From assembly GCA_038320275.1 (NCBI GenBank), contig JBBQEB010000007.1, positions 1 to 51,950 on the forward strand: a stretch of 51,950 nt of DNA, in the 5' to 3' direction. The DNA is from Myxococcales bacterium (GTDB lineage Bacteria > Myxococcota > Myxococcia > Myxococcales > Anaeromyxobacteraceae). A program made the position numbers and the translations under genes. Shown here piece after piece: positions 4,416 to 21,949 of the stretch (positions are counted from its first letter, which is position 1; every line of letters starts with the position of its first letter). The notes below the pieces were generated by a model, which saw only the letters and a list, made by a program, of their open reading frames with translations, made no database searches and was not told the origin of the DNA.

Positions 4416-5246
4416 TCACAGCTGGTACAGCGTCGCCCCCTTGCGCGCGTACCCGCGCTCCCGCGCCAGGACGTCGAGGTGCAGGCTGGTCCAGTCGGCC
4501 AGGAAGAGATCCTCTTCCCCTTCGCCGACGTACGTCTTGAGGAACCCCTTGCACGCGGTGCAGAGGTCCACCCGAAGCTCGCGCTCGTCCTCCAGCTCCA
4601 GGAGCTCCGTCCGCTCTCCGCCCTCCGCGGAGCACAGCGGGCAGCCCAGCCGCTTGAAGCGCCAGCGCGTGCGGCAACAGGCGCAGGACAGGAGCCGTTC
4701 GGGCCCGTCCCCGCGGTCGACGAGCTGGGCCATGGCCGGCGGAGCGCCGCAGGTGGGGCACATGGGGCGCTTCCAGCGCGCCTCATCGCCCCTCCAGACC
4801 GCGTACTCCGAGACGAGCGGCCCGAGGAGGTGGGCGAGCACCGTCCACCCCAGGAACCAGAGCAACCCGGGATTCTGCGGTTCCTGCGCGCCGGGGTCGC
4901 CGAGGAGCCAGCGCACCACGGCCTTGCGCGCCTCCGGGCCCTGCCGAAGCTGCTCGCGGACGTGGCGGCACTGCACCAGCATCCCAGCCGGTACCCCCGC
5001 CCCGACGAGCCGGGCCGCCACCCGCTCCAGCGCGTCGGCCGCCCAGTCCCGTACGTCGAGCCCAGCCCCGAGGCTGAGGAGCAGGGGCACGCCCTCGACG
5101 TGCTCGCGGGCATAGGCCGCCCAGCGCGGCACGAACACCACCGGCGTCGCCTCCGCGCGGGCGCTGGCCTCCACCAGCCCCTGGAAGGAGGCCATCCCGG
5201 CGAGAAAGGGATGCGCGTCGATCCAGGCCTCCAGACGGTTGTCCAT
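4416..5246 (-). CDS. fdhE: Formate dehydrogenase accessory protein FdhE
   Basis: CPTCG, CACC-x-TRW, CPLC and CTACKGFLK Cys pairs, then LHLDVLA...GY. Last gene of the fdh operon; ATG at 5246. Confidence 0.9.
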   Translation of the reverse strand: MDNRLEAWIDAHPFLAGMASFQGLVEASARAEATPVVFVPRWAAYAREHVEGVPLLLSLGAGLDVRDWAADALERVAARLVGAGVPAGMLVQCRHVREQLRQGPEARKAVVRWLLGDPGAQEPQNPGLLWFLGWTVLAHLLGPLVSEYAVWRGDEARWKRPMCPTCGAPPAMAQLVDRGDGPERLLSCACCRTRWRFKRLGCPLCSAEGGERTELLELEDERELRVDLCTACKGFLKTYVGEGEEDLFLADWTSLHLDVLARERGYARKGATLYQL

Positions 5247-7609: not shown

Positions 7610-10600
7610 CTACCGCGACGCGACCGTGGCCTCCCCTTCCGCCTTCCGGACGTTCACCAGGCACGCCTTCGTCTCCTGCGTGCCCGCTCCGGGATCCCCC
7701 GCGTCGATGGTGAGGACGTTCGTGCTGGGGCCGGTGCTGAGACCCTTGAACCCCCAGTTGTAGGGCATCCAGACCACCGTCACCTCCTGGCCCTGGATGC
7801 GGAGCGTCTGCATGCGCTTCGTCACCACGGCTTTCACCACGAGCTCGCCGCGCGCCGAGGAGACCTTGGCCCGGTCGCCCGTCTTCATCCCCAGCTTCGC
7901 CGCCAGCTTCTCCGGGATCTCCACCATCGGCTCCGGCACGAGCTCGTTGAGCCACGCCACGTTGCGGGTGGTCGACCCCGCGCACCAGTGCTCCGCCATG
8001 CTCGAGGTCATGAGCACGAAGGGGAAGTCGCGGGTGGTGCCGATGGGCTGCTTCGACTTCACTCGCGGATACTTGAGGCATGGGTTCGTCGCCACGGCCG
8101 GGTGCAGCGCGTTCGGCACCGGGCTCTCCACCGGCTCATACATCTCCGGGAACGGCCCGTCCTTCGGGACGTAGGAGGTGTCGCGCGGCACGCCTTCACG
8201 CTTCGGATCCGGGTCGGCGTACGGGTTCGCCATGAGGCGGGCGACGCCCTCGCCGTTCATCCGGAACGGCTTCTGGCCGTTGGGCGTGTCGGGGCCGTCG
8301 GTGGGGACCGGGACGTCGGGCGTGTCGTTGCCCTTCCACTTCTTCTCCGCCTCGTCCCACCAGATGACCGGCTTCGTGCCTGGCCAGGGCTTCCCCTTGG
8401 CGTCGCAGGAGGCGCGGTTGTACAGGATCTTCATGTTGCCGGGCCAGGACCACGCAAACCCTGGGTACGTGCCGAGACCGGCCGGCCCGTCCTTGGGGTC
8501 GCGGCGCTTGGTCAGGTTCTTCCCGCCCTTGAAGACGCCGGCGTAGATCCAGACGCCGCTGGAGGTGGAGCCGTCCGCCTGCAGTTCGCCGATGCCGCCG
8601 ATCGGCTCCCCGGTGGTCAGATTCGTGCCGTTCATCTCGCGCAGCACCGCCTCGGCCATGCCCTGGGCCGGGTAGTTCCAGGCGGCCTTCGCGAGCGGCG
8701 CGTCCTTGGCGTCGGTCGAGCCGGCGTAGAGGTCGCGCACCTTGCGGAAGACCTCGTCGAACACCTCGAGGTCGGCGCGAGCCTGGCCGGGCGGCTTCAC
8801 GCCAGCGTGCCGCCACTGCACCAGGCGGCCGGAGCCGGTGATGGTGCCCTCCTTCTCCATGAAGTACGCGGCGGGGAGGAGGATGACCTCCGTCTTCACC
8901 AGCCTGGGGTCGACGCCGGGACGCTCCCAGAAGGCGGCGGTCTCCGTCTCCCAGAGCTCCTGCACCACCAGCGTCTCGAGGTTGCCAAGCGCCTCGCCGA
9001 CGTAGGTGAGGTTGGGATTCGTGACCATCGGGTTCTGCCCGAGGACCCACATCATCTTGAGGTCGCCCGCGTAGGCGGCGTCGACCATCCCGAAGATCGA
9101 GTAGTCCTTCTTCGCGCTCTTCTTGGGCAGCCAGCCGAAGCCGAAGCCGTTGTCGGCGGTGGCGTTCGTGCCGAACCACGCCTTGAGGCCGTTCACCGCC
9201 CACTTGGCGCGGAAGGTGCCGTTGTGCGCGGTCCACGCCTCGAGCGTGGGCTCGTCGTGGTTCGGGTAGTTGAGGTAGCCGAACATGTACCCGTTGAGCA
9301 CGGACATGTCGCAGGCGCCCTGCACGTTGGGCTCGCCGCGCAGCGCATTCACGCCCCCGCCCGCCTTGCCCATGTTGCCGAGGAGCTGCTGCAGGATGCC
9401 GTAGCAGCGGATGTTCTGGATGCCGACCGTGTGCTGGGTCATCCCGAGCGCGTACAGGATCGTCCCGGGCTTGTTCTTCGCGTACAGCTCGGCGATGAGC
9501 TCGATCTGCGCGGCGGGGATCCCCGAGATCTCGGCCCCGACCTCCAGCGTGTAGCGGCTGAAGTGCTGGCGCAGCTTCGCGAACACGCAGCGCGGATCGT
9601 CGAGGCTCTCCGCCCTGACCGGCTTCCTCGCCTCGGCGTCGAGCGCGTACGACCAGGAGGCGTTCTGGTAGGCGTGCTTCTCGGCGTCGTACCCGGTGAA
9701 CAGCCCGCCCTCGAAGCCGAACGCGTCGTCCACCAGCAGGAGCGCGTTGGTGTGCAGCTTCACGTACTCCTCGTCGTAGAGCCGCTTCTCGAGGATGTGG
9801 TGGATCATCGCCGACAGGAACGCGATGTCCGCGCCGGGGCGGATGCGCGCGTACACGTCGGCGATGGAGGAGGTGCGATTGAAGCGCGGATCGACGTGGA
9901 TGATCTTGGCGCCGTTCGCCTGCGCCTTGCGGATCCACTTCATGGCGATGACGTGGTTCTCGGCGGTGTTCGAGCCCTCGATGAGGAAGACCTTGGCGTT
10001 CTGGAGATCGGCCCAGTGGTTCGTCATCGCGCCGCGGCCGAACGATGCCCCCAGACTGGGGACGGTGGGGCTGTGTCAAAGGCGCGCTTGGTGCTCGACG
10101 TACGACGTGCCGAAGAGCCTCCCCATCTTGTTCCAGAGGTAGCACTCCTCGTTCGTGCTCTGCGCCCCGCCGAGGAAGCCGATGCCATCGGTGCGATGGA
10201 CCGGGTGCTCGCCGGCGGCGTCTTTCTCGGTGGCCACCCAGGTCGTGTCCCGCACCGACTTCACCTTGCGGGCGATCCTGGCGATGGCCTCCTCCCAGGT
10301 GATGTCCTGCCAGTGGTCGGAGCCCGGCGCGCGGTAGCGCGGCGTCTGGAGGCGGCGGGGCGAGGTGTGCGTCGCCACCATGGCGCTGCCCTTGGCGCAC
10401 AGGGAGCCACCGTTGATGACGTGGTCGGGGTCCCCCTCCAGCGTGAGCAGCTCGCCGTCCTTCACCCGCCCGAGCATGCCGCAGCCCACCGAGCAGAAGT
10501 TGCAGGCGGTGGTGTACTCCTTGGCGTGGGAGATCCTGAGCTTGCCCGCCGCCGCCCGGGCCTGGGGCACGTCCAGGAGGCCCGCCACCGCCAGCCCCGC

Positions 10601-10648
10601 GCCGCCGCCCGCCACGTACTTCAACCAGTCACGCCTGCCGAGGTCCAT
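7610..10648 (-). CDS. fdnG: Formate dehydrogenase-N-type alpha subunit, selenocysteine-containing, Tat-exported (about 1012 aa)
   Basis: Tat motif GRRDWLK and CNFCSVGC...GSLCAKG cluster motif. In-frame TGA at 10076-10078 in HQARL-U-HSPTVPSLGASFGRGAMTNHW joins the two track ORFs. LRGEPNVQG motif; GGGGAG RBS. Confidence 0.95.
10043..10078 (-). promoter_or_regulatory. Sec UGA codon and bacterial SECIS hairpin
   Basis: UGA CACAGCCCCACC GUCCCCA-GUC-UGGGGGC: a 7-bp stem with AGUCU apex starting 12 nt after the UGA, in the same position as the E. coli fdnG SECIS. Confidence 0.85.
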
Positions 10649-10816
10649 CGTCGCAGCTCCCCTGCCTTGGGGGCCGCGAGGCGGCCGAAGGCGGTCAACG
10701 GGTATTCCGAAAGGAACCCCACTCTGCTGAGGGGCGGAATGAAGCGTCAACCCAGCCAATCTCGCGCAATGCGTCACGAAATCACACGAGGTGTACGAGA
10801 GCGCAATGGTCGATGA

Positions 10817-10830
10817 TTGATGCTGGTCAA
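10817..10830. promoter_or_regulatory. Putative FNR/CRP-family binding site upstream of the fdh operon
   Basis: TTGAT-GCTG-GTCAA is a 9/10 match to TTGAT-N4-ATCAA, in an AT-richer intergenic region about 170 bp upstream of fdnG. Confidence 0.45.
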
Positions 10831-10956
10831 GGGGTGCGTCAAAAAGGCGCGCCAGTCGTACATCGGGTCGCACCCAAACAGCACGCAAAGGATGCGCGGT
10901 GCCTGCCTCCGACCGTTCTTTGCCCCTGCAACTTTTTCCGCGCGCGACCCCTCGCC

Positions 10957-11586
10957 TCACTCTTTCGGGGGGCTAGTTTCCAGAGCGAAACCCGCCGCTG
11001 CGAACTCTCCGGGCGTGTTGGCGCCTCGCAATGCGGGAGCAATGCCGGGGGGCAGCGGAAGCCTCTCGACTCCCGCGAGCTCGAGGAAGCACCGCACCGA
11101 GCGCGCGCTCGCGGGACCTCGACAGAGAGCACGCGCCACATCCAGGGACTCGGGGCTCGCCAGCACCAGCGCGGGCAGTTCCTCTCCGTGGTAGGCGCGG
11201 GTCGCGACCCCGCCTGCGAGGAGGGGCAGGAGCGCCTCCTCGGTGAGCGCGGGCAGATCGACGGGAACGAAGAGCAACGCGGTGGGTCGGGCCGGTTCGG
11301 GGACGCGGCACGCGTCCTCCAGCACCGCCGCCATGCCCCCGACCGGACCCAGCTCCCTTGCCGTGTCGGCGATGCATCGCTGACCTTCGACGTCGCCGCT
11401 GACGAGCACGATGGGCGCCAGGCCGCGCGCTTCCAGGGCTCGACCGAGCACGGCGACCACCCGATCGACCAGCCTTCCGCCGCCCGGCCACGGCAGGGAC
11501 GCCTTGTCGCGCCCCATCCTGCTCGACCGCCCACCCGCGAGGACGACGCCCCAGACCGACGCTGGTAAGGGCGCGGGCTCAGCCAC
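10957..11586 (-). CDS. mobA: Molybdenum cofactor guanylyltransferase
   Basis: GVVLAGGRSSRMGRDKA, GPVGG, PVDLP and ANTP motifs. GTG start overlaps the end of moaA. Confidence 0.88.
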   Translation of the reverse strand: MAEPAPLPASVWGVVLAGGRSSRMGRDKASLPWPGGGRLVDRVVAVLGRALEARGLAPIVLVSGDVEGQRCIADTARELGPVGGMAAVLEDACRVPEPARPTALLFVPVDLPALTEEALLPLLAGGVATRAYHGEELPALVLASPESLDVARALCRGPASARSVRCFLELAGVERLPLPPGIAPALRGANTPGEFAAAGFALETSPPKE

Positions 11587-12562
11587 CGATCTCGGCGAGG
11601 TTCCAGGTCCGGCCGCTGTTGCCCTCCAGGAGCCGGTGCGCTGGTGGCTTCGAGCGCAGCGCCGCCTCCACCTGCTCGGCAAGATCTGCCTCGCAGCCGT
11701 CCTCGCGGAGGTGGTGGCGAAGTGAGACATCGCCGTCTCCGAAGAGACAGAGCCGGAGCGCGCCGCGCGAGGAGACGCGCAGGCGATTGCACGAGGCACA
11801 GAAGTCGGTCGCGGTGGGCGCGATCACCCCCACCCGCCCCTGGTGTTGGGCATGGAGGTGCTCCACCGCCGGACCATCCGTCTCGCCCCGCTCCGCGCGC
11901 GCCCACCCGCGCGCCGCCAGCTCGTCCTGAACGAAGGAGACGGGAAGGTGGTGGGCGGCGAAGAACCCGGCGTCGCAGCCGGTGCGCATGAGCTCGATGA
12001 AGCGGACCGAGATGGGCGCGTCGCGCGTCAGGTCGAGGAAGCGCCTCAGCTCGTCGAGCGCGAGGCCGCGCAGGAGCACCACGTTCACCTTCACCGGTGA
12101 AAGGCCGGCCTGCAGCGAGGCAGTGACCCCGCGGAGCACGCGGTCGAGCAGCGCGCGGCCGGTCACCTGCTCGAAGCGCGCCGGATCGAGGCTGTCCACG
12201 CTGATGTTGATGGCGTGGAGTCCCGCGTCGCGGAGGCGCGGCGCCAGGCGCTCGAGGTCGTGGCCGTTGGTGGTGAGCGCGACCTTCCGGATGCCGGGCA
12301 CCGCCGCGACCGCTGCCACGAGCTCCGTGAGGTCGCGGCGAACGGTCGGCTCCCCGCCGGTGAGCCGGACCTTTTCCACGCCCATGGCCGCGAAGCCGCG
12401 CACCAGCCGGCGGACCTCGTCGACGTCGAGGATCGAAGCTGCGCCTGGCACGGGGCGCCAGCCATCCGGCAGGCAGTACGCGCAACGAAAGTTGCACGCG
12501 TCCGTGACGGACAGTCGCAAGTACTTGAATCGACGCCCGTGGGCGTCCTGCAGCACGCGCAC
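11579..12562 (-). CDS. moaA: GTP 3',8-cyclase (radical SAM)
   Basis: YLRLSVTDACNFRCAYC, TGGEP, FCASCNRLR...LCLF and terminal IGG. GTG start at 12562 after GGAAAGGGG. Confidence 0.95.
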   Translation of the reverse strand: MRVLQDAHGRRFKYLRLSVTDACNFRCAYCLPDGWRPVPGAASILDVDEVRRLVRGFAAMGVEKVRLTGGEPTVRRDLTELVAAVAAVPGIRKVALTTNGHDLERLAPRLRDAGLHAINISVDSLDPARFEQVTGRALLDRVLRGVTASLQAGLSPVKVNVVLLRGLALDELRRFLDLTRDAPISVRFIELMRTGCDAGFFAAHHLPVSFVQDELAARGWARAERGETDGPAVEHLHAQHQGRVGVIAPTATDFCASCNRLRVSSRGALRLCLFGDGDVSLRHHLREDGCEADLAEQVEAALRSKPPAHRLLEGNSGRTWNLAEIGG

Positions 12563-12686
12563 GATGCCCCTTTCCAAGGCGGGGAGGCGAACGCGTTTCC
12601 GCGCGCGCCCTGGTGAGCAGGAAGAGCAGCCCACGGCCCAGGGTCCATGCCCGAAGAGGGGTTAGGACGAAGGGCTCGGTAGCACC
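12563..12686 (-). ncRNA. Moco (molybdenum cofactor) riboswitch / Moco RNA motif
   Basis: The moaA leader has the motif hallmarks CCGAGCC...CCUAA, GGCCGUG...CACCAGGGCG-stem-GAAA-stem-CGCCUCCC...UUGGAAAGG. The 5' GGUGCU can pair over the RBS-adjacent GGGCAUC. Confidence 0.85.
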
Positions 12687-14455: not shown

Positions 14456-15436
14456 TCAACGGGTCTCTCGGTCCGGGCAGTTGCCCACCGAGACGCGCAT
14501 GTTGCGGGAGTACGCGCGCTGGCAGTCGAGCACGTAGTCGACGTAATCCTCCTTGTTCTGGGCCTTGCGGTACTGACCTTCGACGAACCGCTGGTTCCGG
14601 CGGTCGCGGCCCCCCTGCTCCGCCGCCATGAAGTCCTGGTGCTGCTTCGTACGCTGCCCCTGGGCGAGCCGGCCCTGCTCCAGCAACGCGCCGGTCTGCT
14701 GGCGGCTCAGCGCCTGACTGCGAGCCACCATGGCCTGCTTCCATCGGTCCATCCAGGCCGGATTGACGGTCATCTTCATCGCCTCGAACTGCGGGATCTT
14801 CGACTGCAGCGTTCCGAGCGGCGCGAACCAGCGCGCCACGAAGGCGGAGCAGCTGTGCTGCTGGCCCGCGCCCAGCGCCGACACCTGGTTGCAGCTCAGC
14901 GTGACGGTGAGCCACTCCTCGAGCTGCTGCGCCCCCACGGAGTACCGGACGAGAGACCGAGCCATGTCGATGCTGAAGCGCATCCCTCCCTGGGCGCGGC
15001 TGTTCATGCTCTGCATGTTTCGCCGAGCCTGGTCGAGCTCCGGGACCGGCACCTCCCGGACGACCTCGAGCCCCCTGATCGCGACCAGGCGGTTCAGGTA
15101 GTCCCTGGCGCTGTCGATCTTGGGCAGCCTCCGGCAGTCGTCCGAGACCGGGAGGCGAGTGCCCCAGGCCCAGTCCGTCCGCGGGAGCAGGTAGAGACCG
15201 CTCAACCCGTCGGGACTCGACGCCCGGACCACGGGAGACGTGGAGGATACGCACGAGGAGCCGGGAAGCATGGTGCCTTCCGCCTTCCATCCTGCCGGCA
15301 CAGCGAGGTCCCAGGCCTTCATCTCGAGCACGGGATCCATCACTGCGTACGAGTGCATCCCACCCGCGCGCGCGGGTGCCAGCCCCGTCGCGGTGAGCGC
15401 CGCGACGGCCATTCGCATCAGGGCAAGACGATCCAT
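14456..15436 (-). CDS. Hypothetical secreted protein
   Basis: Signal peptide ending ARA, VPAGWKAEG, six Cys, Gln/Arg-rich helical C-terminal region, coding-like codon usage; GGAG RBS. Confidence 0.75.
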   Translation of the reverse strand: MDRLALMRMAVAALTATGLAPARAGGMHSYAVMDPVLEMKAWDLAVPAGWKAEGTMLPGSSCVSSTSPVVRASSPDGLSGLYLLPRTDWAWGTRLPVSDDCRRLPKIDSARDYLNRLVAIRGLEVVREVPVPELDQARRNMQSMNSRAQGGMRFSIDMARSLVRYSVGAQQLEEWLTVTLSCNQVSALGAGQQHSCSAFVARWFAPLGTLQSKIPQFEAMKMTVNPAWMDRWKQAMVARSQALSRQQTGALLEQGRLAQGQRTKQHQDFMAAEQGGRDRRNQRFVEGQYRKAQNKEDYVDYVLDCQRAYSRNMRVSVGNCPDRETR

Positions 15437-15631
15437 GGCTTGGCTCCGAGGTCCGGCTGCGACCAGCAGTCGATTCGTGGAGGGGCGCCGGGGGCTTTTC
15501 ACCCGACAGATGGGTCGCTCCGCAGCGAAGGCTCTTCCGTGCGCCCTCGAGCGCACGGTCGAGCTCTGGGTGACGAACTGTCAGACCTCGCCACTACCTT
15601 GCGCATCGCCACGGAACTGCGAGGAGCAACC

Positions 15632-15970: not shown

Positions 15971-16018
15971 GCGAAGCGCCCGCTTATGCTCCGGCCCGAT
16001 CGCAGCGAGGAGACCGAC

Positions 16019-17032
16019 ATGCCGGACAGAACCAATCGTGAAATTCACCTTGCGGCGCGCCCGCGGGGCATGCCCACGCCGAAGGAGTTTGCGCTCGTCA
16101 CGGCGCCCGTGCGCGAGCCCGGTCCGGGCGAGGTGCTGGTGCGCAACCTCTACATGTCGGTCGATCCCTACATGCGCGGCCGGATGAACGACGCCAAGTC
16201 GTACGTCCCGCCCTTCAGGGTCGGCGAGGCGCTCGATGGGGGATCCGTTGGCGAGGTCCTCGTCTCGAACGCGCCATCGCTCGCCCCGGGCGACCTGGTG
16301 GTCTCGCCGGTCGGGGGCTGGCGCGAGCTGCACGTGGCTCCCGCGGAGCTCCACACCAAGGTCGAGAAGGTGGACCCGCTCTCGCTCTATCTCGGCGCGC
16401 TGGGCATGCCGGGGCTCACCGCCTATGTCGGCCTCCTCGACATCGGGCGGCCCAAGGCGGGCGAAACCGTCTTCGTCTCCGGCGCGGCCGGGGCGGTCGG
16501 CGGCATCGTCGGTCAGCTCGCCAAGCTCACGGGATGCCGGGTGGTGGGAAGTGCCGGCTCGGCCGACAAGGTCGAGCACGTGGTCCGCGAGCTCGGGTTC
16601 GACGCCGCGTTCGAGTACCACGGCGAGCCCCCGCGGGCCGCGCTCTCGCGGCTCTGCCCGGAGGGTGTGGACGTCTACTTCGACAACGTCGGCGGCGAGC
16701 ACCTCGAGGCCGCCATCGGCGCCATGAAGCCGCACGGCCGCATCGTCATGTGCGGCGCCATCTCCGGCTACAACGCGACGACGCCAGTCCCCGGCCCCCG
16801 CAACATGTTCCTCGTCATCGGGAAGCGGCTCTCGCTGCAGGGCTTCATCGTGAGCGACCACGCCGACCGCACGCCAGCGTTCCTCGCGGACATGCGGCGC
16901 TGGCTGGCGGAGGGCAAGGTGAAGGCGCCCGAGACGGTGGTGGACGGGGTGGAAAACGCTCCCGAGGCCTTCCTCTCCATGCTGTCCGGCAAGAACGTGG
17001 GCAAGATGGTGGTGCGGGTGGCGCAGGGATAG
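16019..17032 (+). CDS. NADP-dependent oxidoreductase (CurA/YncB, MDR family)
   Basis: [38 protein letters not shown] and CGAISGYN motifs; GAGGAG RBS. Confidence 0.93.
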
Positions 17033-17043
17033 AGACCTCTTCA

Positions 17044-18378
17044 GTGCGCGTCCTCGGCGTCGGCGAGTCGCATGACCTGGGCGACCTCTACGCCAGGCTC
17101 CTGCGGCTCGGCCACGAGGTGAGGGTCTGCGTCGAGGACGAGGCCTGCCACGACGTCCTGGCCGGCATCGTCCCGCGGGTGCCCCGGTTCGAGGATCACC
17201 TCGGCTGGGTGCGCGAGGCGGGCGAGGACGGGCTCGTGCTCTTCGAGGACGTGAAGCACGGCGCGGTGCAGGACGACCTGCGCCGGGAGGGCTTCCAGGT
17301 GGTGGGCGGGAGCGCTCTCGGCGATCGCCTCGAGAACCAGCGCGGCTTCGGTCAGGAGGCGCTCCGGGCGGCGGGGCTGCGCACCGTCCCCTCGCACGGC
17401 TTCGCAGACTTCGAGGAGGCGGAGCGCTTCGTCCTCGAGAGCGCGGGCCGCTGGGTGGTGAAGCTCGAGGGCGGCTGGGCCTCGCACCGCAGCTACGTCG
17501 GCCAGCTCCCCGGCGGGGAGGACGTCGCCGCGTACCTCGCGCTGCAGAGCGCGAGCTGGACGTTCGACGAGCGACCGCGGCTCCTGCTGCAGGAGCACGT
17601 CACCGGCGTCGAGATGGGCGTGGGGGCTTACTTCGACGGCCAGCGCTTCCTTCTCCCCGCCTGTCTCGACTGGGAGCACAAGCGCTTCTTCCCGGGCGAC
17701 CTGGGAGAGCTCACGGGCGAGATGGGCACGCTCGTCACCTGGAGGGGGGCGGAGCGCTTCATGGAGGCGACCCTCGCCAAGCTCGCCCCGCTCCTGCGCG
17801 ACGGCGGCCACGTCGGGTACCTGAACCTCAACACCATCGTGAACGAGGACGGCGTTTTCCCGCTCGAGCTCACCTGCCGCTTCGGCTATCCCGGGTTCGC
17901 CATCCTCGACGCGCTGCACGCCGAGGGCTGGGACACCATCCTGCGGCGGATCGCTGGACGCGCGCCGCCTCGCGTGGAGACGCACGGCGGCTTCGCGGTG
18001 GGCATCGTCCTCACCACCCCACCGTTTCCGTATACCGGCCCCGCGCGCGCCAAGGGGAGCCCCATCCTTCGCCGCCGGCCGCTCTCGCCGGAGGAAGAGG
18101 ACCGACTCTGCCTGGGCGAGGTCATGCTGCGGGATGGCCGCTGGGCGACGAGCGGCCCCACCGGCTACGTGCTCGTCGCCACCGGGCGCGGCGCGACGCC
18201 CTCGGGCGCGCGCGAGGCCGCCTCTGCGCTCGCCGCCGAGATCGTCATCCCCAACGTGCGCTACCGCACCGACGTCGGGGTTCGCTTCGAGCGCGAAGAT
18301 TCGGCGCGGCTGGCGCGGCTGGGCTGGCTCCCGCGAGAACTGTCGTACGCGCCCGGCACGTTCAGCTCCCCCCGATAG
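17044..18378 (+). CDS. PurD-like (phosphoribosylamine-glycine ligase-like) ATP-grasp enzyme, divergent
   Basis: [42 protein letters not shown] and [11 protein letters not shown]. Lacks the canonical GxGGREHA N-terminus; GTG start is uncertain. Confidence 0.8.
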
Positions 18379-19217
18379 CGCGCGAAGCAGCGGGCCCCCG
18401 CCTCCAGCCGCAGCAGCGCACCCTCCGCGATGAAGGGCGCCACCTCCGGGCGGCTCTGCACCAGCGGGCGGAGGATCTCCTCGTTCCAGGCCGCGGAGTG
18501 CTTCACGTCGAGGGTGGCGTGCAGCGCGAAGTACCGGTAACCGGCAGGCGAGACGCCCACGCGCTTCAGCCCCTGCACCACGTGGACAGCGCGCGTCGGA
18601 GCGGTCAGCTCGATCGCGCCCAGCGCGCCCATGGCGTGAAAGGCGTAGCTGCGGGTGGCGGCCAGCGCGACGAGCAGATTTCCGAGCGCCTGCGCTTCCC
18701 AGACGATGGGCGTGGTGCCCGGCGCGGCGCCCACCTCCCGCGCGAGGTCCTCCAGCATGCCGCCGTGCATCCCCTCCTCGCGCCCGCGGCCCATCTCGTC
18801 CCAGTAATTGCGGGCCAGCTCGAGCTTCGCGCGCACGGGAGCCTTCACCTGCGTCAGCGCGACCAGGTCGTCGAAGCCAGCCTCCCCGGCCACCTCCTGG
18901 CAGAGGAACCAGCGAAGCTCGTCGGCTGTGGCCTCCCTCGCGAGGTAGGGAAAGAGGGGGTCGCCCTGACCGGGCCCCTCCTCCCGCAGCCGCTCGAACC
19001 AGGCGACGAAGCCGTCCGGGTCGCGCGGCGCGCTCCGCGCGCGCGCGGCGACGCTCGCCCGCTCGGCCTCCACCCACTCCACCTCGGCTGTGCGGAGGAC
19101 CACTTCCTCCTGGAGCGCCTCCTTCCAGCCTGGGTCGGGAACTCCCGGCGACAGGCGCGCGCGGTTCCAGCTCGACAAGGATGCATGAAGCCGTTCGGGG
19201 CTTTGGGATTCCGGCAC
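18261..19217 (-). CDS. Iron-containing redox enzyme (heme-oxygenase-like diiron oxidase, HDO)
   Basis: [21 protein letters not shown]...[10 protein letters not shown] and [12 protein letters not shown] give an E/H/E/H-D-H ligand pattern. GGAGG RBS before GTG 19217. Confidence 0.85.
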
Positions 19218-19253
19218 GCAGGGGCCTCCGTGGGGTCGTGACCGCATGGTAAA

Positions 19254-20192
19254 TTAAGGACCCCGGTGCCGGCCGCCAGCCCTCCCCGCCCGGACCAGCA
19301 CCACCGCCACCACCGCGATGCGCTCGACGTCCGCGTAGGCCGCGCGCTCGAGCTCCTCGCCGAACACATCCGGATCGAGCTCCTCGTAGCGCGTCTGACC
19401 CGCGAGCTGGACCGCGGGGACGAGCGCCTCCCACAGGAGGTCCTTGCCCTCGACGATGGGCGTGGCGGTGTAGAGGACGAGCTGCCCGCCGGGCTCGAGG
19501 CGCTCCATGGCCTCGCGGGCGATGCGGGCAGAGAGCTCGATCCCCCGCGCCCCGCCGCCGTCGCGGTAGAGCCGCCGCGCCTCGTCCACCAGATAAGGCG
19601 GGTTCGCCACCACCAGATCGACCGGCCCCTGCACCCCTGCGAGCACGTCGCTCGCGATGCACTCCGCCTCGACCTGCGCGATGGCCGCGTTCACCCGCGC
19701 GAAGCGCAGGGCGCGCGGGCTCACGTCGGAGAGCACGATCTCGCGCGCTCTCCCGGCCAGCGACAGGCCGCCCGCGCCGGTGCCGCACCCCACGTCCACC
19801 GCCCGCCGGGCGCCCCGGACCTCGCGCCCCAGCAACGCCAGGAAGCGATAGGTGTCCGGGCCGAAGAACACCGCGTCCTCCTCCACGGTGGGATGAGCGG
19901 AGTGGACGAGGAGCAGGTCGCCGGCCGACGAGAAGCGCACGCGGCTGCGCAGGAGGCCCCCTGGGGCACGCTCCAGCTCGCCAGCGTCGTCGAGGAGCGC
20001 CAGCAGCCCCTCGGGCAGCACCTCCTCGCGAAAGGGCCGGCTCCAGCCGAACACGTCGCGCAGGGAGCGCGCCTCGGCGCCCGGCCGCGCGTTCACCCTG
20101 CGGTGCGTCTCCGGCGTGGGCGTCACGAAGGCGTACTCGCGCGCCCGCAGCCCTTTCCCGAGCTTCACCAGGGCGCGGTCGGCTTCGTCCAT
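19254..20192 (-). CDS. Class I SAM-dependent methyltransferase (HemK-like, NPPY motif)
   Basis: VFFGPDTYRF, VDVGCGTGAGG, ANPPY, YRDGGG and ELDPDVFGEEL motifs. Confidence 0.88.
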   Translation of the reverse strand: MDEADRALVKLGKGLRAREYAFVTPTPETHRRVNARPGAEARSLRDVFGWSRPFREEVLPEGLLALLDDAGELERAPGGLLRSRVRFSSAGDLLLVHSAHPTVEEDAVFFGPDTYRFLALLGREVRGARRAVDVGCGTGAGGLSLAGRAREIVLSDVSPRALRFARVNAAIAQVEAECIASDVLAGVQGPVDLVVANPPYLVDEARRLYRDGGGARGIELSARIAREAMERLEPGGQLVLYTATPIVEGKDLLWEALVPAVQLAGQTRYEELDPDVFGEELERAAYADVERIAVVAVVLVRAGRAGGRHRGP

Positions 20193-20296
20193 GCCGCGCG
20201 ATCTGGGCAGAGGCGGGCGGCCGCGCCAGGGATTCAGCACGGGTGCGCAGCCGCTCGTCCATGGACGGCCCGGCCACCGGCCATTACGCGGAATAG

Positions 20297-21949
20297 ATGA
20301 TCACGGACCTCTGGTACAAGAACGCGGTCATCTACTGCCTGCACGTGGGCTCGTTCCAGGACACCAACGGCGACGGCGTGGGCGACTTCCCGGGGCTCAC
20401 CCGGCGCCTCGATTACCTGGCCGGCCTGGGCGTCACCTGCGTCTGGCTCATGCCGTTCCAGACCTCACCCCAGCGCGACGCTGGCTACGACATCGCCGAC
20501 TACTACAGCGTGGACCCGCGCTTCGGCACGCTGGGAGACTTCGTCGAGTTCACGCGCGGTGCTCATCAGCGAGGCATCCGCGTGCTCATCGATCTCGTCG
20601 TGAACCACACCTCCGACCAGCACCCATGGTTCCGCGAGGCCCGCCGCGACCCGAAGTCGAAGTACCGGGACTGGTACGTGTGGTCGAAGAAGAAGCCCCC
20701 CCGCGCCGACGAGGGCGTGGTGTTCCCGGGCGTGCAGAAGACCACCTGGAGCTACGACGAGGCCTCCCGCGCCTATTACTTCCATCGCTTCTACGAGTTC
20801 CAGCCCGACCTCGACACCGCCCACCCCGCCGTCGCGGCCGAGATCCGCAAGATCATGGGCTTCTGGCTGGAGCTCGGCGTCTCCGGGTTCCGCATGGACG
20901 CGGTCCCCTTCGTCATCGCGAAGAAGGGCGCTGGCGTGAAGCCCACCGAGCAGTACGACATGCTTCGCGACCTGCGCGAGTTCCTGCAGTGGCGCAGCGG
21001 CGATGCGGTGCTGCTCGCCGAGGCCAACGTCCTCCCCAGGAGCGACCTCGAATACTTCGGGGACGACGGCGACCGCATGCACATGATGTTCAACTTCCAG
21101 GCGAACCAGCACCTCTTCCTCGCGCTCGCCACCGCCGACGCCCGCCCGCTCGCGAAGGCGCTCCTCGCCACGAAGGAGCGCCCCGCCACCGCCCAGTGGG
21201 CCCAGTTCCTGCGCAATCACGACGAGCTCGACCTGGGACGGCTGAAGCCCGCCGAGCGCCAGCAGGTCTTCGACGCCTTCGGGCCCGAGCCGCGGATGCA
21301 GCTCTACGGGCGCGGCATCCGGCGCAGGCTCGCCCCCATGCTCGACGGCGATCGCAGGCGGCTCGAGCTCGCCTACAGTCTGGCCTTCACGCTGCCCGGC
21401 ACCCCCGTGCTCCGCTACGGTGACGAGCTGGGCATGGGGGACGACCTCGACCTGGAGGAGCGCGCCTGCGCCCGCACCCCCATGCAGTGGTCCAACTTGC
21501 CGCACGCCGGCTTCTCCACCGCGAAGCGGCTCCCGAACCCGGTCCTCTCCGGGGGGCCCTTCGGCTACGAGCGCGTGAACGCGGCCGACCAGCGCCGGGA
21601 CCCCGAGTCGCTGCTCAACTGGATGGAACGCATCATCCGCATGCGCAAGGAATGTCCCGAGATCGGCTGGGGCGACTTCGCGGTGCTGGACGCCGGGCAG
21701 GCCGAGGTGCTGGCCCTGCTCTACACGTGGCGCAACGATGCCCTGCTCGTCGTCCACAACCTCTCGGGGAGATCGCTGGAGCTCAGGCTCCGCGAGAAGG
21801 ACGTGGGGAGCGACACGCTGGTGAGCCTCCTCTCCGAAGACCACAGCCGGGCGCGCGGCTCGGCGCACACCATCGAGATCGACGCTTACGGCTACCGCTG
21901 GTACCGCGTGGGCAGCCTCGACTACATCCTGAAGCGCACCGGCGCGTAG
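20297..21949 (+). CDS. GH13 alpha-amylase family protein, trehalose synthase (TreS)-like
   Basis: WYKNAVIY, DTNGDGVGDF, VVNHTSDQHPWF, GFRMDAV (nucleophile), LLAEAN (acid/base) and FLRNHDEL. Confidence 0.9.
   Translation: MITDLWYKNAVIYCLHVGSFQDTNGDGVGDFPGLTRRLDYLAGLGVTCVWLMPFQTSPQRDAGYDIADYYSVDPRFGTLGDFVEFTRGAHQRGIRVLIDLVVNHTSDQHPWFREARRDPKSKYRDWYVWSKKKPPRADEGVVFPGVQKTTWSYDEASRAYYFHRFYEFQPDLDTAHPAVAAEIRKIMGFWLELGVSGFRMDAVPFVIAKKGAGVKPTEQYDMLRDLREFLQWRSGDAVLLAEANVLPRSDLEYFGDDGDRMHMMFNFQANQHLFLALATADARPLAKALLATKERPATAQWAQFLRNHDELDLGRLKPAERQQVFDAFGPEPRMQLYGRGIRRRLAPMLDGDRRRLELAYSLAFTLPGTPVLRYGDELGMGDDLDLEERACARTPMQWSNLPHAGFSTAKRLPNPVLSGGPFGYERVNAADQRRDPESLLNWMERIIRMRKECPEIGWGDFAVLDAGQAEVLALLYTWRNDALLVVHNLSGRSLELRLREKDVGSDTLVSLLSEDHSRARGSAHTIEIDAYGYRWYRVGSLDYILKRTGA

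Follow-up and report, generated by a model that had tools for sequence, protein, structure and literature searches.

A conserved gene cassette of a PurD-like ATP-grasp ligase, a heme-oxygenase-like diiron enzyme and an NPPY methyltransferase

The three genes and their enzyme families

The stretch of DNA analyzed here (the window) comprises 51,950 nucleotides, positions 1 to 51,950 of contig JBBQEB010000007.1 in assembly GCA_038320275.1 of a Myxococcales bacterium from the family Anaeromyxobacteraceae. We studied a locus of three genes in it, encoding a ligase that resembles the purine enzyme PurD, a heme-oxygenase-like diiron enzyme (HDO) and an S-adenosylmethionine (SAM)-dependent methyltransferase (MT), which a sequence-only reading had put forward as a candidate minimal biosynthetic system. 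The three genes form a conserved cassette, and their linkage is well supported. The locus is laid out as follows:

17044..18378, + strand: PurD-like ATP-grasp ligase, 444 aa, GTG start; fold of glycinamide ribonucleotide (GAR) synthetase, substrate sites rebuilt
18261..19247, - strand: heme-oxygenase-like diiron enzyme (HDO), PF14518, 328 aa; 3His/3carboxylate ligand set of the HrmI/BelK type
19254..20192, - strand: class I SAM methyltransferase (MT), 312 aa; FFGPDTY and NPPY motifs; HemK/GenN/AerE type
18261..18378, no strand: convergent overlap of the 3' ends of the ligase and HDO genes, 118 bp

As had been proposed, the ligase gene runs convergently into the HDO/MT unit and overlaps it. HDO and MT lie 6 bp apart, and MT has an alternative in-frame GTG start at 20240. 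The overlap mostly encodes poorly conserved C-terminal tails, homologues aligning up to about residue 429 of the ligase and about residue 297 of the HDO. No terminator-like site was found between the two 3' ends, and a scan around the locus gave no sigma-70 site and a single, unremarkable terminator-like site.

The ligase matched the Pfam family GARS_A (E 9.7e-9), stayed below the cut-off for GARS_C, had no match to GARS_N and scored 88.8 bits on the PurD model TIGR00877, whose curated cut-off is 288. Its AlphaFold model, built from an 80-sequence alignment, reached a pLDDT of 91.6, and the top 14 matches listed by Foldseek were all GAR synthetases (PDB 2yrx and 1gso being the solved references), with TM scores of 0.69-0.74 over the whole fold and 18-24% identity. 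To look at the substrate sites, we compared 80 PurD-like proteins with 10 canonical PurDs, mapping by motif the residues that bind phosphoribosylamine and glycine as named in PMC8449271. The residues for ATP/Mg and for the acyl phosphate (K140, K213, E275 and R279) were retained in 79-80 of the 80 proteins. Fold, ATP-binding lysines, metal-binding Glu and acyl-phosphate Arg of the ATP-grasp enzymes are all present; as deviations, Thr stands in place of the metal-binding Asn of ExN (80/80) and Arg in place of the first Lys. The GxGGREHA loop is missing, as the sequence-only reading had noted, and GVGESHDLG stands in its place. At the phosphoribosylamine site, the GGREH Arg has become Asp (69/80) and its Glu Leu (79/80), the RFGDPE Asp has become Tyr (79/80) and the C-domain Arg Tyr (69/80). 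The NPG/GPE motifs are replaced as well. The glycine site keeps the RFGDPE Arg in all 80 proteins, with DHK D->E in 80/80 and, besides the Asp already mentioned, RFGDPE E->G in 80/80. Four acidic residues, E211, E222, E226 and E359, are newly invariant in the family.

A FastTree phylogeny of 89 rows, a check suggested at the outset, set 79 PurD-like proteins apart from canonical PurD (support 100), the cassette members forming a clade of 32 rows (support 100). The orphan status was also borne out: a canonical purD lies on another contig of the same genome (G000:C183, 480 bits) and in 10 of 10 further carrier genomes tested, and no pur gene occurred among the 10 neighboring proteins scanned. 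Judged by its residues and its place in the tree, the PurD-like protein is a paralogue and not a GAR synthetase. That it might be a second working GAR synthetase, with incidental neighbors, is what the shared fold and the automatic annotation as phosphoribosylamine-glycine ligase would suggest; given the canonical purD of all 11 carriers and the replacement of every phosphoribosylamine residue, we give this hardly any credence. A similar judgment is on record, since Brown et al. 2011 (PMC3261824) call the extra haloarchaeal PurD-like proteins Hlac_1553 and rrnAC0307 non-GARS, proposing no function there. Like our ligase, these copies lack GARS_N, have a divergent P-loop and have lost the Asp of R[LF]GDPE. 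The large clade that holds the ligase also takes in a homologue from Halarchaeum (34% identity), whose locus has neither an HDO nor an NPPY methyltransferase as neighbor.

The PurD-like family amounts to at most 805 clusters at 50% identity (E up to 1e-30), a number that may include some canonical PurD. Six members of 750-1120 aa (P0155, P0169, P0185, P0205, P0265 and P0287) are interrupted, around profile positions 224-280, by inserts of the intein/LAGLIDADG kind. A basal member of the ligase clade (L087:6792-12449) sits between an operon for a type III polyketide synthase, a methyltransferase and an FAD monooxygenase on one side and an aminotransferase on the other, with no HDO, possibly a second biosynthetic use of the clade. 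Distant relatives (27-33% identity) occur on the phage contigs L287, L288, L290, L291, L292, L294 and L295 (match near 5001), directly after an open reading frame (ORF) of 990-1490 aa that appears to resemble a DNA-ejection protein, one of them with a phage lysozyme domain; in P0224, the PurD-like domain stands between portal and MuF domains. Virus-rich clusters of the family are also present in the Atlas. This context suggests that the phage PurD-like proteins may be virion-delivered ligases.

The second protein showed the HDO ligand pattern that had been recognized in the sequence. PF14518 is its sole domain (E 5.5e-42, 144 bits for a cut-off of 28.9), and the six ligands E151, H161, E213, H243, D247 and H250 follow the pattern E-x9-H, E, H-x3-D-x2-H of the HDO superfamily and are retained in 153-154 of 154 clade members. 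The closest solved relative is HrmI (PDB 9n1a, E 6.8e-32), and in the profile comparison HrmI (E 6.9e-46) was far ahead of SznF (1.4e-5). In PMC11611017, mutagenesis of BelK defined six essential ligands, an essential Tyr and Phe179; these map to the six HDO ligands, Y239 and F125, respectively. Seven polar residues, Q117, E118, D127, K141, N190, R219 and R280, are common to HDO and two BelK-like proteins, whereas E122 and G124 replace the Asp and the Lys/Arg of these two sequences. It is speculation that the D->E change at E122 could shorten the pocket towards ornithine. Features of the SznF type were missing: F125 occupies the position of the extra Glu ligand, and there is no C-terminal cupin domain. 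In a tree that used 56 of 193 rows, HDO formed a clade separate from HrmI/BelK (support 99). A further clade of long PF14518 proteins (~440-500 aa; L231-L243) pairs with the same MT and has a pocket and a third carboxylate position unlike those of the HrmI type.

For MT, the assignment as an NPPY methyltransferase also held: the Pfam family MTS was matched with E 2.8e-16, with DxGxGxGxG at 133-141 and NPPY at 197-200 as in HemK-like N-methyltransferases, and the protein stayed far below every NCBIfam cut-off. By these motifs, MT is of the N-methyltransferase type. Its best single-sequence PDB match, spanning residues 29-240, was AerE, an N-methyltransferase acting on peptide Asn, and D113 and N197, which correspond to the catalytic Asp141 and Asn231 of AerE, were retained in 111 of 112 MTs.

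Linkage across genomes and the composition of the cassette

The association of the genes was examined in two sets of loci. The ligase-anchored set consisted of the best 80 of 340 GTDB matches, with partners counted within 3.5 kb and 44 loci fully flanked (at least 2.5 kb on both sides); the HDO-anchored set consisted of the best 80 of 551 metagenome matches, 33 of which were fully flanked. At the 80 ligase loci, HDO and an NPPY MT were found together at 63, MT only at 9, HDO only at 1 and neither at 7, the latter on short contigs. Among the fully flanked ones, 42 of 44 had both partners, 2 had MT only and none was without MT. By record titles, the loci belong to Myxococcota, Acidobacteriota, Gemmatimonadota, Pseudomonadota, Planctomycetota, Verrucomicrobiota, Fibrobacterota and Marinimicrobia. 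Sampling 301 genomes from the window's phylum gave the ligase in 6, MT in 35 and HDO in 42; all 6 ligase-bearing genomes had HDO and MT, and all 35 MT-bearing genomes had HDO. Set against these low frequencies of the partners, their presence at 42 of 44 flanked loci shows that the linkage exceeds chance. With the ligase's homologues co-occurring with the HDO/MT pair, the refuting case set out in the sequence-only reading did not come true.

The protein distances of the trio were correlated over 49 loci (Spearman 0.47-0.51, 0/999 permutations), a value that kinship inflates. Stronger evidence of linkage comes from repeated re-pairing and from fusions. Three separate HDO clades, the short, the Gemmatimonadota and the long one (support 99-100 in the tree described above), occur as partners of the ligase, as do two methyltransferase types, and among 13 longer MT relatives 11 carry PF14518 and 1 carries GARS domains, the MT-PurD-like fusion P0134. 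Some of the fusions may be products of frameshift read-through; by eye, P0135, P0137 and P0140 have this look. The opposite orientation of ligase and HDO/MT genes had been raised as an objection to their linkage. The objection lost its weight, eight of the 63 complete loci having all three genes on one strand and P0134 joining MT to a PurD-like protein. The complete loci show 15 gene arrangements, of which the convergent one of the window is the commonest (26/63). In the Gemmatimonadota loci, an HDO clade of their own comes with a divergent NPPY methyltransferase. A second methyltransferase, of the Methyltransf_25 type, follows the ligase in 29 of the 80 loci (the L020-L061 Gemmatimonadota loci, L032, L047, L051, L059, L067 and L084).

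While the linkage stood, the idea of a fixed minimal trio did not. The 80 HDO-anchored loci had MT at 42, the ligase at 15 and a cyanophycin synthetase at 8; the fully flanked ones had them at 17, 4 and 5, respectively. Among 386 Pseudomonadota genomes, MT was found in 19, and the 18 regions fetched contained a long HDO in 13 cases, a short HDO in 2 and none in 3; a PurD-like gene was present in 0, a GCS2/YbdK carboxylate-amine ligase in 5 and cyanophycin genes in 2. The core of the cassette is HDO plus MT, and the ligase is accessory, its place being taken by GCS2/YbdK at 5 of the 18 Pseudomonadota loci. Since the long HDO occurs either with the PurD-like ligase (L063 and L084) or with GCS2, two unrelated ligase folds appear to fill one slot.

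A possibility was that HDO and MT make up a two-enzyme pathway of their own and that the PurD-like protein is a co-regulated stress enzyme with a separate reaction, kept nearby for shared control. Such a view would account for HDO and MT standing without a recognized ligase in many loci (8 of 13 long-HDO loci; a Komagataeibacter plasmid) and for the convergent arrangement being so common. It does not sit well with a ligase that is almost never without both partners and has been re-paired with three HDO clades, with the MT-ligase fusion or with the fact that other stress genes are not retained beside the ligase, and we consider it decidedly unlikely.

In the window itself, the three genes have a GC of 0.73-0.75 and a GC3 of 0.89-0.93, for a genome GC of 0.717; a recent foreign origin by composition was considered and rejected on these values. 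None of 42 other genomes of the window's own family matched the ligase, HDO or MT, and the nearest relatives of all three proteins lie together in one locus, L007, at 73-76%; these two observations fit movement as a unit. Contigs of one DNA sequencing run, possibly from the source sample and hence not independent, matched the locus without differences, one of them covering 18107-19495; the sequencing runs listed for the locus included no RNA dataset. Two further genes border the cassette:

15986..17032, + strand: CurA-like NADPH oxidoreductase, upstream of the ligase and 11 bp from its start
20297..21949, + strand: TreS-like glycosidase, divergent from MT; a neighbor only

The CurA-like gene possibly shares a transcript with the ligase in this window; it lies outside the conserved cassette, being found at 1 of the 80 related loci. 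The TreS-like gene is beside the cassette at 2 of them, the closest relative L007 included. Farther upstream, a 366-aa ORF with a signal-like start (14456-15556, - strand) has no Pfam match and no homologue in the 80 related loci. The stretches 7610-10960 and 10957-12634 (both - strand) hold a formate-dehydrogenase-like molybdoenzyme ORF, named by sequence recognition and split by a stop near 10076, judged by eye a possible selenocysteine read-through, together with ORFs, recognized in the same way as MoaA- and MobA-like, that precede it.

Arginine enzymes, proposed stress control and the putative product

Arginine is processed by the arginine dihydrolase ArgZ, which yields ornithine. At L184, a near-orthologous, ArgZ-like hydrolase (E 1e-73 to Sll1336, FSAN motif) adjoins the ligase and is co-oriented with MT and HDO, and L071 has a second one. 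A pentein of the Asp type (E 1e-19 to 1e-21 to ArgZ/AgrE) flanks HDO at Myxococcaceae-type loci and at L051, L131, L144 and L257; one plasmid record shows it as a fusion with MT. It differs from ArgZ by the distinction between Asn- and Asp-type penteins. Cyanophycinase genes stand beside the module in nine loci, the full trio being present in one of these, L080. Arginine enzymes, that is, ArgZ-like hydrolases and cyanophycin genes, have been recruited repeatedly. The idea that ligase, pentein and cyanophycin genes strictly exclude one another was rejected, L051, L071, L184 and L080 carrying the ligase together with them.

The three reactions are ones that we infer from family chemistry and gene context. 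In our preferred reading, which we hold to be about evenly poised between right and wrong, the product would be a small amide, both N-oxygenated and N-methylated, derived from a basic amino acid, for which arginine or the ornithine formed from it is the likeliest choice. Like HrmI and BelK acting on lysine, HDO would oxidize a side-chain nitrogen, either of a free amino acid or of a short peptide, and so give a hydroxylamine or a nitro group. With ATP, the PurD-like enzyme would convert a carboxylate into an acyl phosphate, to be coupled with an amine that is not phosphoribosylamine, and MT would methylate a planar nitrogen, be it of the new amide or a ureido or guanidino nitrogen. HDO and MT would provide the core chemistry, the amide step being an accessory one performed by the PurD-like or the GCS2/YbdK ligase. 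Any one order of these steps that might be named is unlikely to be the right one.

Several observations weigh against this reading. As to arginine, a tblastn search of this genome (90.7% complete) found no pentein and no GCS2, and CphA gave just a partial 33% match; the pentein-rich loci are mostly close kin, and BelK does not accept ornithine according to PMC11611017. As to the ligase, it was present in just 4 of the 33 fully flanked HDO loci, 16 of which were without even MT, and the 122 genomes sampled from family f2 were all without it, 32 of them having HDO; in one genome of that family (G150), HDO and MT lie 0.85 Mb apart, and the basal ligase at L087 is found instead with a type III polyketide synthase and an aminotransferase. 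GCS2 was encountered solely beside long HDOs, a very divergent clade with other pocket residues, and the GCS2 loci may make a different product. As to MT, its profile scored RsmC, GenN, HemK and AerE alike, which did not narrow down the acceptor, and the position of AerE Tyr137 is Phe in 112 of 112 MTs, so that the Tyr137-Asp141-Asn231 network is incomplete; PMC9060474 reports AerE Y137F as inactive. Finally, no promoter-like motif of the kind described below was found near the three genes in the window.

A different possibility was that a protein or peptide is the target of the cassette, the ligase appending an amino acid to a side chain, MT methylating an Asn, Gln or isopeptide amide and HDO oxidizing Lys or Arg, with cyanophycin as a candidate polymer. 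The AerE match with both catalytic residues in place speaks for it, as do the SET genes and the second methyltransferase (29/80 loci) that join the cassette, the cyanophycin genes adjoining it in nine loci, and the relatives in phage virion regions, one of them fused between portal and MuF, which make a protein or host target plausible. However, no conserved precursor-like or target gene came to light when the ORFs of 84 and of 111 loci were clustered (only those of at least 70 aa), and the essential Tyr of AerE is Phe in MT. Moreover, HrmI anchors the backbone of a free amino acid, as stated in a review (PMC13108848), and the polar residues named above are shared. We regard modification of a protein or peptide as unlikely.

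Alternatively, the route might be catabolic or serve repair, recycling or detoxifying arginine-derived or damaged amino acids, for instance by methylating and then hydrolyzing a guanidino group or by trapping an amine as an amide. Hydrolases recur as partners (penteins, cyanophycinase and isoaspartyl peptidase), and there is no conserved exporter. Yet a route that uses up SAM, ATP and reductant on a single substrate looks like biosynthesis, and the PF14518 relatives HrmI, BelK and SznF, as characterized in PMC13108848 and PMC11611017, are biosynthetic, which makes a catabolic role very unlikely in our opinion.

The sequence-only reading had seen a hint of a stress role in the neighboring treS, curA and msrB genes. 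This hint proved weak: with 2, 1 and 5 occurrences at the 80 related loci, respectively, the three genes were rejected as cassette members. What evidence there is for stress came from other genomes. A motif of the type GGAAC-N15-18-CGTT, the promoter consensus of EcfG-type general-stress sigma factors, was found upstream of 20 out of the 181 HDO genes, compared with none in the 181 gene bodies and a 1.5% background; 17 antisense matches mostly face divergent neighbors. In addition, a large catalase adjoins five loci. At loci of the alphaproteobacterial type, a general-stress sigma factor probably turns on the cassette, as this motif suggests. Near the end of the contig, an identical 25-bp GGAAC...GGTT stretch occurs twice, 81 bp apart (window 51824 and 51905, - strand), likely as a short repeat. 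No transporter or regulator was conserved among the recurring neighbors of the ligase- and HDO-anchored loci, and this, taken together with the probable stress-sigma control, makes a protective or nitrogen-storage metabolite likelier than an exported antibiotic. PA2179-PA2181 of P. aeruginosa are presumably MT, long HDO and GCS2 genes. PMC3224232 places them in the PA2134-92 locus, which is stress-induced, and gives them no name beyond hypothetical proteins.

Relation to known systems and significance

Among characterized enzymes, the L-lysine N-oxygenases HrmI and BelK are the closest to HDO, sharing PF14518, the complete set of six iron ligands, an essential Tyr, a Phe where SznF has its extra ligand and many polar pocket residues; they differ in forming a separate clade and at E122 and G124. 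Their gene partners differ too. BelK-like loci come with a 2OG-Fe (2-oxoglutarate, iron) cyclopropanase, DapF and a molybdo-reductase, and no HrmJ/BelL-type cyclopropanase plus DapF cluster occurred among the recurring neighbors of our cassette loci. Complete BelK/L/M/N-like cassettes (HDO, 2OG-Fe dioxygenase, DapF and molybdopterin oxidoreductase) were seen at L094:5641-10520 and L284:2249-5585, on Agrobacterium vitis and Streptomyces plasmids.

In the streptozotocin pathway, SznE is the methyltransferase that gives methylarginine before N-hydroxylation by the HDO. The pairing of a methyltransferase with a PF14518 N-oxygenase acting on arginine is similar to ours (for SznF, PMC13108848), but SznF matches HDO weakly and carries a cupin domain as well as one more carboxylate ligand, its fourth. 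The mangotoxin mbo system (Badding et al. 2026, PMC13185094) is a precedent for an ATP-grasp ligase, an arginine deiminase and an HDO acting together: its ligases stand free, and the substrate is a small peptide that contains arginine. The likeness is one of logic, and mbo is without a methyltransferase in that account, its MboA being a desaturase with a redox partner. AerE/PoyE, GenN and HemK share with MT the GPD and NPP[YF] motifs (PMC9060474), with D113 and N197 as the equivalents of AerE Asp141 and Asn231, whereas AerE/PoyE differ by Tyr137 and by a precursor of the ribosomally made and post-translationally modified peptide class, none of which was seen here.

An HDO with an ATP-grasp ligase is a known kind of system; what is new, within the literature searched, is the present combination. 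No description of the trio or of its product was found in that literature, although the 25 HDO+ATP-grasp cluster types of Fig. S2C in PMC13185094 may include it; PMC5512222 and PMC9503650 make no mention of PurD.

Collectively, we conclude that this is a real, widespread and uncharacterized biosynthetic cassette. A family routinely mis-annotated as phosphoribosylamine-glycine ligase emerges as an orphan enzyme that can be put to the test. The pathway defined here has three genes, is easy to express and occurs in eight phyla or more. A bolder picture joins several proposals: a PurD-derived family of general-purpose amide ligases working with a HrmI-like N-oxygenase and MT in soil bacteria, interchangeable with YbdK and delivered by phage virions, and a widespread arginine- or ornithine-derived N-methyl, N-hydroxy or nitro stress metabolite. 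As a whole, we find this joint picture rather doubtful. If the product of the cassette is as predicted, soil bacteria would possess a common N-oxygenated metabolite so far missed, N-oxygenation of the HrmI type would extend beyond cyclopropane antibiotics, and GCS2/YbdK, a long-orphan ligase occupying the same slot, would have a physiological reaction suggested for it.

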